From the IMG/VR virus record IMGVR_UViG_2547132488_000013: a stretch of DNA of 9,319 nt. One strand, written 5' to 3'. This DNA is from a virus (lineage: Duplodnaviria > Heunggongvirae > Uroviricota > Caudoviricetes). A program made the translations under genes and the position numbers. The notes below the pieces were generated by a model. That model ran no database searches and was not told the DNA's origin. It saw only the letters and a program-made list of their open reading frames with translations. The stretch's first letter is position 1; each line of letters begins with the position of its first letter. Of the stretch, positions 410 to 7,580 are shown one piece after another.

Positions 410-1057
410 CTATAGGTTGAACTGTACACCTTTTGCTACGGCAACAATTTTACACTCTGGCGTAAGCAAGGATGATTGATAGCGCGGATTAAGAGGACTT
501 AAATACACAAGTTTTCCATCAATAACTAATTTTTTTATAGTCATAGACGGTTCATTTGTAAGTGGATCCGGAACTATTACAGCGACGATACTGCCATTTT
601 TATAACTTTCTCCTGGTCTTAGGATCACTGTGGCACCAACCGGGATACTCGGCGACCCTGATGGGTTATGCATAGTGTCATCAGGCATTGAAACGGCAAA
701 ATCACCTTCCACTACATCAAAAAATGTGGTGATCCTATCGACATTTCCCATTGTTTTCTCTCCTTCTAAGATTAGGAAAGAAATCGCGTCACCCCACGAA
801 AAGTAGGGGATCTTGGTGCCTGGATTGCTCTGCACAAAAGATAGTTCAGGAGATGATACTCCATACAGGAGATAGGACTCAGTAGTTCCTAATGCTTGGG
901 CTAACTTACTTAGAGCTTTGCTGCCGGGTTCGTTTAGATCTTTCTCCCAGTACCCTATAGTAACTCCAGTCACGCCTGAAAGCTTACCCAGTTCTACTTG
1001 AGTGAGCCCCTTATCTTTTCTGAGTCTCTTAAGCCTGATGCCAAGGCTTTCCATCAT
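410..1057 (-). CDS. CI-like prophage repressor, N-terminal HTH (XRE-type) plus C-terminal LexA/S24 peptidase-like autocleavage domain
   Basis: 215-aa ORF. N-terminus LKRLRKDKGLTQVELGKLSGVTGVTIGYWE is a typical HTH. C-terminal half has an S24-like serine context (GDFAVSMPDDTM) and a downstream lysine (TIKKLVIDGKLVYL). Divergent from a cro-like gene across a 96-bp operator region. Confidence 0.85.
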   Translation of the reverse strand: MMESLGIRLKRLRKDKGLTQVELGKLSGVTGVTIGYWEKDLNEPGSKALSKLAQALGTTESYLLYGVSSPELSFVQSNPGTKIPYFSWGDAISFLILEGEKTMGNVDRITTFFDVVEGDFAVSMPDDTMHNPSGSPSIPVGATVILRPGESYKNGSIVAVIVPDPLTNEPSMTIKKLVIDGKLVYLSPLNPRYQSSLLTPECKIVAVAKGVQFNL

Positions 1058-1824: not shown

Positions 1825-2118
1825 ATGACATTTACAAATGAAGGTCGAATTGTTTTTGATTTTGAGTACGAAACACCATTGCAGAGATTGATTATGTTAA
1901 GAATTTTCTGCTCTGGGAGTGGTGATGGTGGGCGCGAAAAGCGTTTTGAAGATCAGGAATTCCGACGTTTTTGTTGTTGTACGTTTGATGAGTTTGAGCA
2001 GGCTATCGCGAAACTTATCGAGATGGGAGTGATTCATAAAATAAGTTATGGATATCAATACGGAAAGCCATCAAGCGGTTACATCATCAAAGATCCGGGT
2101 GAAATTATTCAGTTATGA
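1825..2118 (+). CDS. Hypothetical protein (97 aa)
   Basis: ORF with SD AGGAG (1813-1817); stop overlaps the start of the replication gene (ATGA 2115-2118), indicating co-translation in the early-right operon. Confidence 0.65.
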   Translation: MTFTNEGRIVFDFEYETPLQRLIMLRIFCSGSGDGGREKRFEDQEFRRFCCCTFDEFEQAIAKLIEMGVIHKISYGYQYGKPSSGYIIKDPGEIIQL

Positions 2119-3080
2119 GTCTTCTTTTTGCTGAACGTCCGCTGGTTATTAACACGCATCTGGCGATGAAAATTGGCCTGAACGAAGCCATCGTGTTGCA
2201 GCAGCTGCATTACTGGTTGAGAGATACCGGTTCCGGCATGGAATGTGATGGTGTTCGCTGGATTTATAACACAACAGAACAATGGCTGGAACAGTTCCCG
2301 TTCTGGTCAGAGTCAACGTTAAAACGCGCATTTGCAAGTCTGAAAACGCTGGGGCTTTTGCGTTGCGAAAAGCTCAACAAATCAAAGCGTGACATGACTA
2401 ATTTTTACACGATTAATTACGAGAGCGAGCTTTTAGATGGTGGCAAAGTGAGCGAATCCATCAGGTCAAAATGCGCTGCTCCATCAGGTCAAAATGACAC
2501 GATGGAAGAGGTCAAAATGAAACGCTCCATTGGTTCAAAACGACCCAATGTCATCGGGTCAAAATGGCCCGATGATCTTACAGAGAATACAACAGAGATT
2601 ACTACAGAGAATAAAAATACTTCTCGTCCGGAAGCTTCGCAACCGGACCCGCAGACGGCTGAACAGGATTTTTTAACCCGACACTCTGACGCGGTTGTGT
2701 TCAGTGCGAAAAAACGCCAGTGGGGCAGCCAGGAAGATTTAGCGTGTGCGCAGTGGATCTGGGGACGAATCGTGAGTCTTTACGAACAGGCTGCCAGCGA
2801 TGATGGTGAGATCACGCGACCGAAAGAACCCAACTGGACTGCATGGGCCAATGACGTGCGCACAATGCGGATGCTTGATGGCAGAACTCACAGGCAAATT
2901 TGCGAAATGTTTGGTCGGGTACAGCGGGATCCCTTTTGGGTAAAAAATATCATGAGTCCGTCAAAGCTTCGTGAAAAATGGGACGAACTGGTCATCCGCC
3001 TGGGGCGTTCGCCTGTACAGCGTTGTGTGAATCACATTTCTGAACCGGACACCGAAATTCCGCCTGGGTTCAGGGGGTGA
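2115..3080 (+). CDS. Phage replication initiator (O-like organisation: N-terminal DNA-binding domain, low-complexity linker encoded by iterons, C-terminal domain)
   Basis: 321-aa ORF in the position of a lambdoid replication gene. An iteron array and AT-rich repeats lie inside its linker-coding region, as in lambda O. The C-terminal domain (FWVKNIMSPSKLREKWDELV) may be DnaT-like; unverified. Confidence 0.7.
   Translation: MSLLFAERPLVINTHLAMKIGLNEAIVLQQLHYWLRDTGSGMECDGVRWIYNTTEQWLEQFPFWSESTLKRAFASLKTLGLLRCEKLNKSKRDMTNFYTINYESELLDGGKVSESIRSKCAAPSGQNDTMEEVKMKRSIGSKRPNVIGSKWPDDLTENTTEITTENKNTSRPEASQPDPQTAEQDFLTRHSDAVVFSAKKRQWGSQEDLACAQWIWGRIVSLYEQAASDDGEITRPKEPNWTAWANDVRTMRMLDGRTHRQICEMFGRVQRDPFWVKNIMSPSKLREKWDELVIRLGRSPVQRCVNHISEPDTEIPPGFRG
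2457..2620 (+). repeat. Candidate origin of replication: five iterons plus three AT-rich 12-bp repeats
   Basis: GGT(C/T)AAAA(T/C)G cores at 2464, 2487, 2510, 2532 and 2557 (spacing 23, 23, 22, 25 bp). The first two share the 17-mer TCCATCAGGTCAAAATG. Followed by ACAGAGA(A/T)TA at 2580, 2592 and 2604. Confidence 0.6.
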
Positions 3081-4736: not shown

Positions 4737-5159
4737 ATGACCACTATTACCAAAGAACGCGCGGAGATTAAATCATTCATCACTGGTTTCCTGAGCGACC
4801 CGGCGCACGATAACCAATCCTCAGACAGCCTGCTTGCCAATGTGTTTCGTATCGCCCTGGCATCACTGGAAGCAGAACCAGTTGCATGGACTGATGACGA
4901 GGAACTGCGAGATGTTGAGCGAATTGGTTTAGGTTATTTATTACCTTGTCCTCCAGATAAATACGCAGACCCGCGTCGTGTAATTCCGCTGTATCGTGTG
5001 CCGCCAGCTCCTACAGTGCAGGCACAGGGCATTGAGATCGCAATAAACGAACTGGCGTCTCTGTCCCCACAGCTGGATAAACGAGCGGTGGAAACTCTTT
5101 CCATGGCTGTGGCACATCTACGCAAACTGGTTAAGAAGCAGTTGCAGGCTAAGGAATGA
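4737..5159 (+). CDS. Hypothetical protein (140 aa); N-terminal module paralogous to the next gene
   Basis: ATG 4737 with SD GAGGA (4725-4729). Shares ITKER...RIALASLEAEPVA with the downstream ORF. Confidence 0.7.
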   Translation: MTTITKERAEIKSFITGFLSDPAHDNQSSDSLLANVFRIALASLEAEPVAWTDDEELRDVERIGLGYLLPCPPDKYADPRRVIPLYRVPPAPTVQAQGIEIAINELASLSPQLDKRAVETLSMAVAHLRKLVKKQLQAKE

Positions 5160-5162
5160 CAC

Positions 5163-5957
5163 ATGAACGCTATCACCAAAGAACGTATTGAATTGTTCAT
5201 TAAAAATTCGCTTGAAAACGGGTTTACTCGTAGCGAACAAATGGAAGTGGCACGGATTGCTTTGGCATCGCTGGAAGCAGAACCGGTTGCAGTAAACGAC
5301 GACATGGCTTACGCATTCCATCACGCATTGTCAGATTCATCGCTAGGCGCTGATGAAGTAGAGGAAATTAAGGCCGGTTTGCGTGCTGCCTTTGCCAACG
5401 TCACTATCCAACCAGAGCCGGTAGTGCCGGATGAAATCGAGCCAGACGATAGCAATACGTTTGATTATGTTGATGGCTGGAACGCCTGCCGCGCCGCCAT
5501 GCTTCAGAGTCAGAGGGAAGGCAACCCTCATGTAACCCCGGCTCGCCTGCCTGGTGGTTTCACTATTGAGGATGCGAAGGAGTTACATGAAGACCTGGTA
5601 CGCAGCCACATAAGCCAGGCTTTAAGTGGCGAGAAGATGAAAAAGAAAGATCGTGATGCTGATTTGCGCTGGATTCATGGCGTTATAGTACAGGCAGCGT
5701 GGTTTGTGAAAGCTTCACTGGATGCGTTGCCTGAACCGCTGCGGGAGGAGAAGGGAGGAAGTGCCAACTGTACTGCCAGTCATGGTACAACCGACAATCC
5801 ACCAGTACCAGGCAAACAGACTGACGAATTAACCATGCTGGTTAAGCAATTGGTCAGTCAACTGAAGAAAGTGAAGCCGGACTGTAAATTGCCGGATAAG
5901 GCGATGGACTACCTGAAGCGGAACGAACTGATAAGTGCGGAGGATGTTTTGCGATGA
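5163..5957 (+). CDS. Hypothetical protein (264 aa); N-terminal module paralogous to the preceding gene
   Basis: ATG 5163 with SD AAGGA (5151-5155). N-terminus MNAITKERIELFIKNSLENGFTRSEQMEVARIALASLEAEPVA. Acidic central region. Confidence 0.75.
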   Translation: MNAITKERIELFIKNSLENGFTRSEQMEVARIALASLEAEPVAVNDDMAYAFHHALSDSSLGADEVEEIKAGLRAAFANVTIQPEPVVPDEIEPDDSNTFDYVDGWNACRAAMLQSQREGNPHVTPARLPGGFTIEDAKELHEDLVRSHISQALSGEKMKKKDRDADLRWIHGVIVQAAWFVKASLDALPEPLREEKGGSANCTASHGTTDNPPVPGKQTDELTMLVKQLVSQLKKVKPDCKLPDKAMDYLKRNELISAEDVLR

Positions 5958-6037
5958 CCTGGCCTGAAGCATTCACAACGGTAGGAATTGCGATGGCGGT
6001 GGCGCTGGTGGTGTATTCGATTTGCCGTTGGGGATAA
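5954..6037 (+). CDS. Unannotated 27-codon hydrophobic peptide, translationally coupled to the 264-aa gene
   Basis: ATG 5954 overlaps the upstream stop (ATGA 5954-5957). Translation MTWPEAFTTVGIAMAVALVVYSICRWG, stop TAA 6035-6037, directly followed by a strong terminator. Below the ORF-track length cutoff. Confidence 0.35.
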   Translation: MTWPEAFTTVGIAMAVALVVYSICRWG

Positions 6038-6042
6038 CAAAC

Positions 6043-6073
6043 AAAAACCCCGGATTGATGGTCCGGGGTTTTT
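6043..6073 (+). terminator. Rho-independent terminator (potentially bidirectional) ending the early-right gene block
   Basis: 7-bp GC stem CCCCGGA (6048-6054) / TCCGGGG (6062-6068), loop TTGATGG, A5 upstream (6043-6047) and T5 downstream (6069-6073). Confidence 0.75.
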
Positions 6074-6294
6074 GAAGGAAACAAAACAGAAACAACAATT
6101 GCCGTTACCTGTTGTTACCATGGCAAGTAAACGTATCTCAGGCGAGCGCATTGCACCGTTCTGACGCAGATAAATTAGCCATGGATAGATGGTGCTGGCA
6201 ATAAAAAATAGCGTTTTCTTATCGGTGTCGGTAAGATTGCTGCGGGTGCTTGAGGCTGTCTGCCTCGGGCATGCCACTGTAAGGCAGGCAGAGA

Positions 6295-6397
6295 AAAGCC
6301 CCAGTTAACATTACGCGTCCGGCAAGACGCTTAACATTAATCTGAGGCTCCCTATGCATGACAACATCAGGTTAGCCTCTTACGTGCCGAAAGGCAA
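6295..6397 (-). ncRNA. sok: Candidate Sok-like antisense RNA locus (promoter plus expected transcript over the mok start)
   Basis: Minus strand reads TTGCCT (plus 6392-6397), 17-nt spacer, TAACCT (plus 6369-6374), predicting a leftward transcript from about 6362 across the mok start (6354-6356). This is where Sok maps in hok/sok loci. Transcript 3' end not identified. Confidence 0.3.
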
Positions 6398-6566
6398 GGA
6401 GAAGCAGGCTATGAAGCAGCAAAAGGCGATGTTAATCGCCCTGATCGTCATCTGTTTAACCGTCATAGTGACGGCACTGGTAACGAGGAAAGACCTCTGC
6501 GAGGTACGAATCCGAACCGGCCAGACGGAGGTCGCTGTCTTCACAGCTTACGAACCTGAGGAGTAA
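6354..6566 (+). CDS. mok: Mok-like in-frame N-terminal extension of hok (overlapping regulatory reading frame)
   Basis: ATG 6354 opens a 70-codon frame whose last 51 codons are hok. This matches the layout I recall for chromosomal mok/hok pairs such as mokC/hokC. Confidence 0.4.
   Translation: MHDNIRLASYVPKGKEKQAMKQQKAMLIALIVICLTVIVTALVTRKDLCEVRIRTGQTEVAVFTAYEPEE
6411..6566 (+). CDS. hok: Hok/Gef-family type I toxin (small membrane-depolarising peptide)
   Basis: 51 aa: MKQQKAMLIALIVICLTVIVTALVTRKDLCEVRIRTGQTEVAVFTAYEPEE. N-terminal TM helix and conserved RKDLCEVRIRTGQTEVAVFTAYE signature of Hok/Gef/RelF. SD AAGGAG (6396-6401) 9 nt upstream. Confidence 0.85.
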   Translation: MKQQKAMLIALIVICLTVIVTALVTRKDLCEVRIRTGQTEVAVFTAYEPEE

Positions 6567-6633
6567 GAGACCAGGCGGGGGAGAAATCCCTCGCCACCTC
6601 TGATGTGTCAGGCATCCTCAACGCACCCGCACT

Positions 6634-6654
6634 TAACCCGCTTCGGCGGGTTTT
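6634..6654 (+). terminator. Rho-independent terminator downstream of hok
   Basis: AACCCGC-TTCG-GCGGGTTTTT: 6-bp stem (6635-6640 / 6645-6650), TTCG tetraloop, T-tract 6650-6654. Confidence 0.7.
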
Positions 6655-6781
6655 TCGTCGCATTATGAGGTTGTAATTTTAGCTACCATTAGACTATCCT
6701 AAGGATCTCAAACAGATCTATTTTGCATCAAATTTGGTGCATGGCTTTGCCAATAATCGGAAAACAAAAGGACTCATTAGT

Positions 6782-6961
6782 ATGAGCTGCCCACTCAAAA
6801 AACACACGCGGTTGAGTATTCCGCCTCGCGATAAAAGCGTTGTGGCAGTCCCTCGCCCAGCGATTGATGAAAACTGCGCACATCGTGAACAAGTGAAAAA
6901 TGCTTTTGATTTCGGTTTTTCTCGTTATGAGAAAGCCATGGAAGACCTCTCTAAAGTGTAA
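6782..6961 (+). CDS. Small ORF upstream of the Doc-family toxin; putative cognate antitoxin
   Basis: ATG 6782 with SD AAGGA (6768-6772), 59 aa. Ends 20 nt before the Doc-like gene, the usual antitoxin-first layout. The track start at 6734 is a TTG with no SD. No recognisable Phd signature; role inferred from position only. Confidence 0.5.
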   Translation: MSCPLKKHTRLSIPPRDKSVVAVPRPAIDENCAHREQVKNAFDFGFSRYEKAMEDLSKV

Positions 6962-6981
6962 TAGATGGGGGGCTGTACTCC

Positions 6982-7467
6982 ATGGCTGAGATTGTTGAAG
7001 GTGTGCATTACCTTACGGTTGATGATCTTGTTGAAATCAATCGTTCCCTAATTGAATTACAGACGCCAGATGAGCCCGTTGGTGTTCTGAGTCCAGATAA
7101 CTTAAGTTCTTCTCAGGCCCGTCCCAGCATGGTTCGATGGTATGAACAGATCAATGACATGTTTGTACTGGCATCGGTATTGATTGAAAGTCTGATTCAG
7201 AATCATCCGTTTGCTAATGCGAACAAACGAACAGCTATGATGGCTGGTTACGTCTTCTTGTTGTTGAATGGCTATGAGTTAACAGCACCAGGCGATGAAA
7301 TCGTGGAAATGGCAGAGGGACTGGCCTGCAAAACCTATACTCGAGAAGATCTCGAGAACTGGTTGTGTTATTGGTCTCGTGCGTATGACAGCCGGGAATT
7401 ATGTAAAACAGGCGCAACTATTGTTTTGTATGAAACTATCAAGCTTAAAATAGAACAGCAAAACTAA
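6982..7467 (+). CDS. doc: Doc (death-on-curing) / Fic-fold family toxin
   Basis: 161-aa ORF containing HPFANANKRTAMMAGYVFLLLNGYEL, which matches the Doc-type catalytic motif (compare P1 Doc HIFNDANKRTA). Confidence 0.8.
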   Translation: MAEIVEGVHYLTVDDLVEINRSLIELQTPDEPVGVLSPDNLSSSQARPSMVRWYEQINDMFVLASVLIESLIQNHPFANANKRTAMMAGYVFLLLNGYELTAPGDEIVEMAEGLACKTYTREDLENWLCYWSRAYDSRELCKTGATIVLYETIKLKIEQQN

Positions 7468-7483
7468 AGGTGCTTCCAATGAA

Positions 7484-7505
7484 AACCCGCTTCGGCGGGT
7501 TTTTT
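7484..7505 (+). terminator. Rho-independent terminator downstream of doc (same hairpin as the hok terminator)
   Basis: AACCCGC-TTCG-GCGGGTTTTTT: stem 7485-7490 / 7495-7500, T-tract 7500-7505; begins 17 nt after the doc stop. Confidence 0.7.
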
Positions 7506-7580
7506 GTTTTACGTATTCTGGTTTACAATCCACAGGCCAGCCTGAACAACTGGCACCTGCTGCGCCAGCAGAGAAAACCG

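Follow-up and report, generated by a model that had tools for sequence, protein, structure and literature searches.

The window, a 9,319-nucleotide stretch of DNA from a virus of the Caudoviricetes (IMG/VR record IMGVR_UViG_2547132488_000013), very probably contains, between about 6232 and 6656, a hok/mok/sok type I toxin-antitoxin cassette that is structurally intact and belongs to the hokW/hokD lineage; Table 1 collects its elements. The cassette forms part of the early, replication/nin-like, portion of a lambdoid prophage, with replication genes upstream and DUF968/RusA downstream; reading of the sequence and its open reading frames showed that nothing interrupts it, be it a frameshift, a stop or an IS element. 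Directly downstream of the cassette comes a Doc-family toxin module, and the surrounding region resembles an accessory or defence cargo cluster.

Table 1. Elements of the hok/mok/sok cassette (positions are those of the window; MFE, minimum free energy fold)
Element	Positions	Strand	Basis or remark
Putative hok/mok −10, TAAGAT; weak promoter without a good −35	6232-6237	+	reading of the sequence
hok mRNA, full-length, ~412 nt, probable +1 to terminator T-tract	6244-6655	+	Rfam start, homology boundaries
tac element, GGGTGCTTGAGG, 5′ partner of fbi	6244-6255	+	MFE, alignment of relatives
Metastable 5′ hairpin, tac paired with adjacent downstream sequence	6246-6272	+	fold, covariation
Sok antisense RNA gene, ~69 nt	6294-6362	−	probable ends, mapped from annotated 933W SokW via alignment
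ucb/anti-SD box, AAGCCCC	6296-6302	+	predicted partner of mok SD (closed full-length RNA) or tac (open form)
Long imperfect hairpin common to hok leader and Sok	6302-6344		folds, alignment of relatives
mok Shine-Dalgarno (SD), GAGG	6344-6347	+	invariant in 24 relatives
mok reading frame, 70 aa, ATG at 6354, in frame through hok	6354-6566	+	ORF reading, relatives
Sok promoter, −35 TTGCCT (6397-6392), 17-nt spacer, −10 TAACCT (6374-6369)	6369-6397	−	sequence, 933W/Sp5 homology
dcb box, AGCCTC; predicted to pair around the mok SD, giving the open form its Sok-target hairpin	6374-6379	+	local fold
hok Shine-Dalgarno, AGGAG	6397-6401	+	read from sequence; K-12 hokD identity starts here
hok toxin gene, 51 aa and stop	6411-6566	+	Pfam, PHROG, identity to K-12 hokD
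3′ stem-loop, 9-bp hairpin, presumed protector of the 3′ end of the processed, translatable mRNA	6574-6595	+	MFE
fbi element, CCTCAACGCACCC, 3′ partner of tac	6616-6628	+	MFE, alignment of relatives
Intrinsic terminator, AACCCGC-TTCG-GCGGGTT and short T-tract	6635-6655	+	MFE, K-12 hokD homology

The product of hok matched the Pfam HOK_GEF profile at 81.6 bits (cut-off 22 bits; E 3e-23) over 42 of its 42 positions, in agreement with an initial annotation of this DNA that had described a canonical Hok/Gef peptide at 6411–6566. It also matched PHROG 251, 'MokW-like host killing', at 113 bits, and the coding sequence is identical at the nucleotide level to that of hokD of Escherichia coli K-12, whose product is reported to be toxic when expressed (preprint 10.1101/2025.08.07.668861). 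The in-frame mok-like start previously noticed at 6354 does open a 70-codon frame running through hok, and this start is kept in 23 of 24 relatives. Its Shine-Dalgarno sequence is separated from the ATG by 6 nt in the window and by 8 nt in the relatives, indicating a 2-nt deletion in the window. Among close relatives mok is found either in the hok frame or in the +1 frame, a switch brought about by a single-nucleotide indel within the −35 element of Sok. For hokD, A-to-I editing has been reported that turns the Tyr47 codon (TAC; within 6549–6552 of the window) into one for Cys; here the local fold of 6536–6566 lacked a stable tRNA-like stem-loop at TACG (z = +0.5), and editing of the TadA type is not claimed.

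The structured leader of the hok mRNA was recognized by the Rfam sok model RF01794, which matched the plus strand from 6244 to 6416 and covered model positions 1 to 157 of 157. The match scored 109.6 bits, with a gathering score of 59 (E 7e-25); the locus, taken whole, is far beyond what chance would produce. When 55 fetched loci were compared with the window, the left boundary of homology fell between 6236 and 6244, with its mode at 6236, and the right boundaries clustered at 6628, the commonest, or at 6654–6655. The Rfam start together with these left boundaries places the 5′ end of the hok mRNA probably near 6244, so that 110 nt precede the mok ATG and 167 nt the hok ATG. The initial annotation's left edge of 6082 and its leader length of about 270 nt were therefore corrected, to about 6236–6244 and about 167 nt, respectively. 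The segment from 6076 to 6238 is a rare spacer with only weak structure (z = −2.1); we rejected it as part of the cassette, since only 30 of the 5426 E. coli genomes have it and both the homology and the Rfam model begin at 6236–6244. Several Rfam matches below their gathering scores were also set aside as products of terminator hairpins: isrK at 6575–6656 (26 bits compared with 50), rsmX and istR at 7416–7506, and STnc30, PsrR1 and a betaproteobacterial toxic sRNA at 6037–6144.

Consensus scans of 5900–6800 and 6560–6720 yielded a bidirectional terminator at 6042–6074 as their sole site. The σ70 scan of 5900–6800 did not call a hok/mok promoter; the putative −10 hexamer precedes the conserved 5′ end by 6 nt, at a place where phage 933W has TAGAAT. 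The hok terminator was likewise not called in the scan of 6560–6720, because its T-run is short, and was retained on the strength of its fold and homology.

Folding of the predicted full-length mRNA gave a minimum free energy of −179.1 kcal/mol (z = −7.9 relative to shuffled sequences), with the 5′ end closing on the 3′ end. Over the 24 relatives 87.8% of the pairs in this structure were kept; slid controls kept about 40%. Both sides had changed in 32 of the pairs. The long-range 5′/3′ interaction is present, tac pairing along its length with fbi, and the tac/fbi helix was 96.9% paired in the 24 relatives, two of its pairs showing compensatory GC-to-AU changes. The metastable hairpin (−20.7 kcal/mol, z = −4.8) was 98.5% paired and also had two compensatory pairs; positions 11 and 12 of tac covaried with both the fbi and the metastable partner. 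In the same full-length structure the AGCC of ucb (6297–6300) pairs with GGCT at 6346–6349. The 3′ stem-loop (helix 15) was paired in 96.4% of cells and had two compensatory pairs; its assignment as a protector follows the R1 model (PMC9841398).

The open form, in which tac would pair with ucb, was not obtained by unconstrained folding, either of the 3′-truncated mRNA, which gave the closed or metastable form, or of the leader alone; therefore, we compared constrained energies. Enforcing the tac/ucb helix cost 11.6 kcal/mol in the full-length RNA, whereas it cost 1.6 kcal/mol in the 3′-truncated RNA. This helix was 97.6% paired, yet invariant in the alignment of 24 relatives, making covariation uninformative. 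The same applies to the SD/dcb hairpin, formed in a local fold of 6340–6400 by pairing of GAGGCU with AGCCUC, whose five core pairs were invariant in 23–24 of the 24 relatives. Over the cassette as a whole the sequence and RNA elements are present, intact and conserved, with covariation in helices such as tac/fbi and the metastable hairpin.

Mapping of the annotated SokW of 933W onto the window placed the antisense gene on the minus strand at 6294–6362, close to the 6295–6365 expected earlier. In the fold of the predicted Sok RNA (−31.1 kcal/mol, z = −5.05) a single-stranded 5′ tail of about 10 nt is followed by a long hairpin and then by a tail rich in U. The minus-strand promoter TTGCCT-17-TAACCT proposed in the initial annotation is present exactly there, with the same hexamers in 933W/Sp5 sokW. 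Taken alone it is unremarkable, with 4/6 and 3/6 agreement with the consensus at −35 and −10, respectively, and a simple σ70 consensus scan of 5900–6800 did not call it. We kept it despite this because of its homology to sokW and an experiment with Sp5, in which the primer used for a promoter-less construct replaced exactly the AGGTTA/TAACCT element and toxicity was unmasked (Takada et al. 2021, PMC8621323). In 24 of 24 relatives the −35 retains its TTG and the −10 its A2 and T6. When this prophage region is cloned or deleted, toxicity would be expected if the Sok promoter at 6369–6397 were disrupted.

The stem GCGTC (6315–6319)/GACGC (6326–6330) and the two TTAACATTA copies (6305–6313 and 6331–6339), read earlier as a leader hairpin flanked by direct repeats, were confirmed in the sequence; they do not constitute a separate feature, however, but belong to the long hairpin at 6302–6344, of which they make up the apical portion. 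Both the hairpin 6315–6330 and the TTAACATTA repeats are invariant in 933W; an 18-nt apical extension of the Sok/leader hairpin is absent in some relatives, those of the hokC type. In the alignment of relatives (helix 3) seven pairs of the long hairpin changed on both sides and one on one side only, and the scarcity of G-U intermediates fits a hairpin that needs to fold on both strands. With the Rfam match, the Sok gene and promoter and the RNA elements all in place, the locus bears out its first description as complete-looking and provided with its own regulation, and that it is potentially active, as was also suggested, is plausible.

By analogy with the characterized members of the family, we infer that the cassette is transcribed, that its mRNA is processed at the 3′ end, that Sok is unstable and that Hok is toxic here. 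The weak promoter would produce the hok mRNA of about 412 nt, and in the nascent transcript the 5′ tac would be kept in the metastable hairpin. Once the transcript is completed, tac would pair with fbi and ucb would mask the mok Shine-Dalgarno sequence, giving a closed RNA that should be stable, untranslatable and unbound by Sok. Slow 3′ trimming to the stem-loop at 6574–6595 would remove fbi, after which tac would pair with ucb and the mok Shine-Dalgarno sequence would enter the hairpin with dcb; this open RNA would be translatable (mok, and hok via coupling) and at the same time a target for Sok. We propose that Sok, an unstable antisense RNA of about 69 nt made from the minus-strand TTGCCT-17-TAACCT promoter and covering the mok Shine-Dalgarno sequence and start codon, would block translation and leave a duplex marked for RNase III. 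Were Sok synthesis to stop, whether because the prophage is induced, the element is lost or transcription is shut off, the stable hok mRNA already accumulated would be translated, and the 51-residue Hok would insert in the inner membrane, whereupon the cell would be depolarized or killed.

Our best-supported guess for the physiological role, again by analogy, is the one described for Sp5 hokW-sokW, assistance of lysis at induction: in Sp5, Sok vanishes when the prophage is induced in a RecA-dependent manner, while Hok speeds up lysis and raises phage release about twofold (PMC8621323). As the cassette occupies a position different from that of 933W hokW, this induction-linked role may not transfer. 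The cassette may, in addition, stabilize the prophage and exclude other phages.

That addiction is the main role, with post-segregational killing stabilizing the prophage as it does plasmid R1 and without help to lysis as the chief benefit, seems to us not very likely. When the question was put directly to a lambdoid prophage, the sole case of this kind, deletion was without effect on growth of the lysogen, whereas at induction the locus favoured the release of phage (PMC8621323), and integrated prophages are seldom lost through mis-segregation; against these points stand the status of addiction as the function on which the family was founded (PMC9841398), the wording 'prophage maintenance' in the 933W annotation and the architecture of stable mRNA and unstable antisense RNA, which appears to be fully present here.

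It is also unlikely, in our judgment, that this is a complete but physiologically silent, 'domesticated' chromosomal hok, permanently repressed by Sok and causing no killing on loss of transcription. The precedent comes from intact chromosomal hokA, hokB and hokC, which, in the part of a survey preprint that concerns them (10.1101/2025.08.07.668861), are cited as giving neither post-segregational nor rifampicin-induced killing; thus an intact sequence is no guarantee of activity. The hok promoter of the window is very weak by consensus, and relatives of the leader number up to 8 per E. coli genome, so that related Sok RNAs could cross-repress. Against silence, all the regulatory elements are under evident purifying and compensatory selection; furthermore, hokW-sokW, with 92% identity, is active in the prophage to which it belongs (PMC8621323), and decayed copies, such as one relative with a mutated tac (L006) and the truncated K-12 hokD, look unlike the window.

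We regard as doubtful a main role in defence of the lysogen by abortive infection, in which shut-off of host transcription by an infecting phage would deplete Sok and free Hok. A passage in PMC8621323 describes lowered T4 plating efficiency and plaque size with R1 hok/sok on a high-copy plasmid, an effect that by the same passage was modest and dependent on copy number. The Doc-family module next to the cassette and its cargo-like surroundings would fit such a role, but hok was not enriched near defence systems in the survey preprint (10.1101/2025.08.07.668861), and nothing in the window bears on phage defence. Finally, the reading of in-frame mok as making the 51-residue Hok and a 70-residue Hok with a lysine/arginine-rich N-terminal extension into a holin/antiholin-like dual-start pair, which if true would time membrane permeabilization at prophage induction and connect a Sok-set ratio of isoforms with the lysis-assisting phenotype of hokW, is highly improbable; the sequence evidence argues against it, since the switching of close relatives between in-frame and +1-frame mok means that the fused mok-hok product is not conserved.

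The locus is an ordinary complete hok/sok cassette, of the hokW-sokW lineage that has been tested experimentally, and textbooks have treated the hok/sok family as a type I toxin-antitoxin example since the 1980s. Of 5426 complete E. coli genomes, 4125, or about three quarters, have homologues of the regulatory leader. RefSeq names near-identical intact loci 'hokD', and standard annotation gives the toxin coding sequence only, leaving mok, Sok and the RNA elements unmarked. The value of the locus lies in annotation and in teaching, one alignment showing K-12 hokD as it was before relBE replaced its 5′ half.

The founding member of the family, hok/mok/sok (parB) of plasmid R1, has the same gene layout as the window. 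Its mok is in the +1 frame, whereas that of the window is in the hok frame. The tac/fbi pairing, metastable hairpin, ucb, dcb, Sok target and 3′ stem-loop of R1 (PMC9841398) were all recovered in the window, ucb, dcb and the Sok target as predicted pairing elements. At the DNA level plasmid hok/sok loci align with the window only over the core at 6344–6420, with about 80% identity, which is too short for a useful full-length alignment. At the protein level HokW is 44% identical to R1 Hok (PMC8621323) and 90% identical to the Hok of the window. Loci of the hokC/mokC (gef) type (L019–L021) have an in-frame mok of 69–70 codons and the same cassette length and boundaries as the window. They differ in having about 74% nucleotide identity to it, no 18-nt apical hairpin segment, a −35 of TTGACC, a −10 of the CACTCT type and no shared terminator.

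Much closer is hokW-mokW-sokW of the Stx2 phage 933W and the Sakai prophage Sp5 (AF125520), shown to be a toxin-antitoxin system of type I (PMC8621323), with about 92% nucleotide identity over 6236–6638 of the window (92.1% over 407 aligned positions, the Sok gene and promoter included). Identical between the two are tac, ucb, the Sok hairpin including the repeats and stem at 6305–6339, dcb, the Sok −35 and −10 hexamers, the hok Shine-Dalgarno sequence and fbi, and sokW is annotated (as misc_RNA) on the strand opposite hokW/mokW. MokW is also in frame and has 70 residues, 89% identical to the Mok of the window, with the first five differing; the Hok proteins are identical at residues 1–44 and differ at the C-terminus (TAYEPEE in the window, VDYESEK in 933W). 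The 933W/Sp5 cassette lacks the 2-nt deletion between the mok Shine-Dalgarno sequence and ATG and has a different terminator, homology ending at 6638. Its genomic position is different too: from a conserved 27-residue reading frame to the hok 5′ end there are about 40 bp in 933W, and the window has about 200 bp more, made up of a terminator and the rare spacer.

The relation to hokD (relF) of the K-12 Qin prophage is of another kind. The two loci share the same hok coding sequence, fbi and terminator, a 3′ untranslated region with two substitutions and a downstream DUF968 (ydfU-like) gene; the K-12 sequence is identical to the window, however, only from about 6397, the hok Shine-Dalgarno sequence, to the terminator. 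It had been pointed out before that the Qin homologue follows relBE and presumably lacks its own regulation, and the alignment agrees, with relE sequence upstream in place of the leader: K-12 hokD, with relBE directly upstream, is without tac, ucb, the mok start, dcb and the Sok gene and promoter, all of which the window has. The K-12 definition of hokD, as a gene downstream of relBE without its own mok/sok, does not describe the window, and we conclude from the alignment that the locus in the window is the untruncated form of K-12 hokD.

The 51-aa product of the hok ORF covered the full Pfam HOK_GEF profile (81.6 bits, E 3e-23) and matched PHROG 251, 'MokW-like host killing', at 113 bits. In the same frame, as the initial annotation had noted, a 70-aa ORF, mok, starts from the ATG at 6354. 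The full length of the Rfam RF01794 (sok) model aligned to plus-strand positions 6244–6416, scoring 109.6 bits where the gathering score is 59 (E 7e-25), and by this match the locus as a whole exceeds chance. What this match describes in practice is the hok leader, since it falls on the hok-mRNA strand and stops at the hok start codon.

Boundaries were compared across 55 fetched loci from Escherichia, Shigella, Kluyvera, Citrobacter, Pseudocitrobacter, Pantoea, Erwinia, and Photorhabdus. Left homology ends clustered at 6236–6244, with the mode at 6236, and right ends fell at 6628, the end of the 3' element fbi, or at 6654–6655 where the terminator was in common. Of 5426 complete E. coli genomes, only 30 contained the unannotated spacer of ~160 bp that separates a bidirectional terminator from the hok 5' end. 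This spacer was missing from phage 933W, folded only weakly (z = −2.1), and may provide the hok promoter with its −35 or UP region. We concluded from the homology ends and the rarity of this spacer that the cassette begins well inside the left edge of 6082 first proposed; by the same boundaries the leader runs for ~167 nt before the hok ATG and for 110 nt before the mok ATG, rather than for ~270 nt.

Coordinates of the cassette, its elements, and the surrounding prophage genes
Feature	Position	Strand	Remark
cI-like repressor	410-1057	-	
cro/cII-like genes			
O-like replication gene	2115-3080		
Several small phage ORFs			
140-aa and 264-aa ORFs	4737-5957	+	adjacent
27-aa hydrophobic ORF	5954-6037	+	MTWPEAFTTVGIAMAVALVVYSICRWG; unannotated
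Bidirectional terminator	6042-6074		
Spacer	6076-6238		
hok/sok cassette	about 6232-6656		
tac	6244-6255		5' element
Metastable 5' hairpin	6246-6272		
ucb	6296-6302		anti-SD
Counterpart of annotated 71-nt SokW	6294-6362	-	
dcb	6374-6379		
Sok TAACCT	6374-6369	-	
Sok TTGCCT	6397-6392	-	
hok	6411-6566		
hok Tyr47 codon (TAC)	6549-6552	+	
fbi	6616-6628		3' partner of tac
Terminator core after hok	6637-6650	+	CCCGCTTCGGCGGG
Small ORF	6734-6961	+	PHROG 2208
Doc-family toxin gene	6982-7467	+	
Terminator core after Doc gene	7486-7499	+	CCCGCTTCGGCGGG
DUF968 gene, rusA			after hok region

The elements of a hok/sok system, named here after the description of R1 (Le Rhun et al. 2022, PMC9841398), are present, intact, and evolutionarily conserved. 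The full-length RNA (6244–6657) gave an MFE of −179.1 kcal/mol (z = −7.9 relative to shuffles), and in this predicted fold the 5' end GGGUGCUUGAGG pairs with the 3' end CCUCAACGCACCC as the tac/fbi stem, the kind of 5'/3' pairing anticipated in the initial annotation; ucb is predicted to pair through AGCC (6297–6300) with GGCU (6346–6349), masking the mok SD. When conservation was scored over 24 aligned relatives, 87.8% of cells at MFE pairs were paired, as compared to 37–44% in slid controls, and 32 pairs had two-sided changes. In the tac/fbi stem, with 96.9% of cells paired, two pairs had compensatory GC-to-AU changes, and the strong metastable 5' hairpin (−20.7 kcal/mol, z = −4.8) was 98.5% paired, also with 2 compensatory pairs. 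The same two tac positions co-varied with both their fbi and their metastable-hairpin partners: in Kluyvera-type loci and Citrobacter youngae, a G-to-A change in tac was accompanied by C-to-U changes in both partners, as alternative pairing predicts. Imposing the tac/ucb stem of the open form cost 11.6 kcal/mol in the full-length RNA but only 1.6 kcal/mol in RNA trimmed to 6600; folded without constraint, the trimmed RNA still had a closed MFE structure, not the open one. A mok-SD/dcb hairpin (GAGGCU, 6344–6349, with AGCCUC, 6374–6379) was predicted by local folding. This helix and tac/ucb were invariant in the aligned set, and hence covariation speaks neither for nor against them.

On the minus strand, the TTGCCT and TAACCT hexamers, separated by 17 nt, were found exactly where they had been placed as a Sok promoter. 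They match consensus at 4 of 6 and 3 of 6 positions, taken alone have no significance, and were missing from the output of a generic promoter scan. Mutation of the sokW −10 element unmasks toxicity, and the primer used, YO-421, swaps exactly the AGGTTA/TAACCT element (Takada et al. 2021, PMC8621323). The Sok strand from 6362 to 6290 folded with −31.1 kcal/mol (z = −5.05), with a predicted single-stranded 5' tail of ~10 nt over the mok start followed by a long hairpin and a U-rich tail. The hairpin shared by leader and Sok, helix 3 in the conservation scoring, had two-sided changes in 7 pairs and a one-sided change in only 1; G-U intermediates were few, as expected if folding is required on both strands. 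The stem at 6315–6319/6326–6330 and the two flanking TTAACATTA copies noted earlier do exist, not as a separate feature but as the apical part of this hairpin, whose 18-nt tip occurs in hokW/hokD and Kluyvera-type loci and is missing in hokC-type loci.

The mok frame was compared in an alignment of 6354–6411 with eight relative loci (L011, L012, L024, L026, and L029–L032). The mok ATG preceded the hok ATG by 57 nt when in frame and by 58 nt when in the +1 frame, and this spacing varied with a 1-nt indel by which the Sok −35 TTGCCT becomes TTGACC; hokC-type loci regain the frame by a second indel in the −10 region. In Kluyvera ascorbata (L031), mok starts with ATA. As the frame switches among close relatives, the downstream Mok sequence is not conserved as protein, which fits a role for the act of mok translation and not for its product; in-frame mok is a normal variant, not peculiar to this cassette. 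Within hok, the Tyr47 codon sits in an invariant CTTACGAA motif. According to a preprint, TadA A-to-I editing recodes the tyrosine at this codon to cysteine in hokC, hokD, and hokE; local folding gave no stable tRNA-like stem-loop around the codon, though the motif is retained.

No IS element, frameshift, or premature stop was found in the cassette, and its tac and fbi are complementary. An E. coli paralogue (L006, 533–560) has a mutated tac, GACTGCATGTGG, that has lost pairing with its own fbi, and so has probably been inactivated. Two hok cassettes lie in tandem (4–355 and 525–917) in one Enterobacteriaceae genome (L029). Of 5426 complete E. coli genomes, 4125 had homologues covering at least 80% of the regulatory leader (6244–6400), with a maximum of 8 per genome; no annotation lay under the eight matches listed.

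The window is a piece of lambdoid prophage. The 140-aa and 264-aa ORFs have an N-terminal module in common, both starting M..ITKERxE.., and both matched PHROGs 660, 60, 3323, and 5117. Both products seem to be phage paralogues with no assigned function, and 933W has the related L0139 and L0140 upstream of hokW. The ATG of the 27-aa ORF overlaps the stop of the 264-aa ORF (ATGA), suggesting translational coupling. This small ORF had no match in Pfam, PHROG, or NCBIfam but is kept just 5' of hok at 81–100% aa identity in 933W (L001 1384–1461, where it is without annotation) and in four other loci (L002, L005, L010, and L023), and may be a second small membrane peptide accompanying the cassette. 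On the 3' side lies a probable type II module (6734–7467): the Doc (death-on-curing) gene matched TIGR01550 (128 bits), PHROG 577, and Pfam Fic, and the preceding small ORF, whose PHROG has no assigned function and which probably starts at the internal ATG 6782, could be its antitoxin. Here the probable type II module is immediately 3' of hok/sok, and in K-12 Qin type II relBE lies immediately 5' of hokD; this site has the look of a TA-cargo hot-spot. The 14-nt terminator core is identical after hok and after the Doc gene, a repeat with a chance expectation of 0, and these terminators produced the weak Rfam matches to rsmX, istR, and isrK, which we rejected.

The canonical hok/sok mechanism is the best explanation of the cassette, and its interpretation as such a locus is supported once the boundaries are corrected. 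R1 hok/sok and hokW-sokW would be the models for its transcription and 3' processing, for Sok turnover, and for its toxicity in this setting and its physiological role. HokW is toxic and is neutralised by sokW expressed from its own promoter, with repression partially dependent on RNase III and Hfq; upon RecA-dependent induction sokW is lost, HokW builds up in the inner membrane, lysis is earlier, and phage release is approximately doubled (PMC8621323). By analogy we favour induction-linked lysis assistance as the role. That the locus is silent in practice is a real possibility, since such silence has been reported of other chromosomal hok loci that are intact (cited in 10.1101/2025.08.07.668861). 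The same recent survey reports hok to be enriched in prophages and HokD to be toxic. Prophage addiction and abortive infection are alternative roles to lysis assistance.

The 579-bp region first delimited matched E. coli chromosomes with up to 96% identity, at CDSs named 'hokD' or 'Hok/Gef family protein' in RefSeq, and 101 phage records, among them 933W and VT2-Sakai (Sp5), whose annotation includes mokW, hokW, and the antisense RNA SokW. DNA-level likeness to plasmid hok loci was limited to the 6344–6420 core. K-12 hokD, which comes after relBE in Qin, equals the window from ~6397 (AGGAGAAGCAGGCTATG...) through the CDS, 3' UTR (two substitutions), fbi, and terminator, whereas farther 5' K-12 has unrelated relE sequence; the hokD lineage is therefore represented in the window by its untruncated form, and the contrast with Qin drawn initially was correct. 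From 6236 to 6638 the window is ~92% identical to 933W, with identical tac, Sok hairpin (stem and repeats included), Sok promoter hexamers, hok SD, and fbi; it differs by the loss of 2 nt between the mok SD and its ATG, by a Mok 89% identical to MokW, and by a Hok whose differences from HokW are confined to the last seven residues. The element is an already known and very common system.
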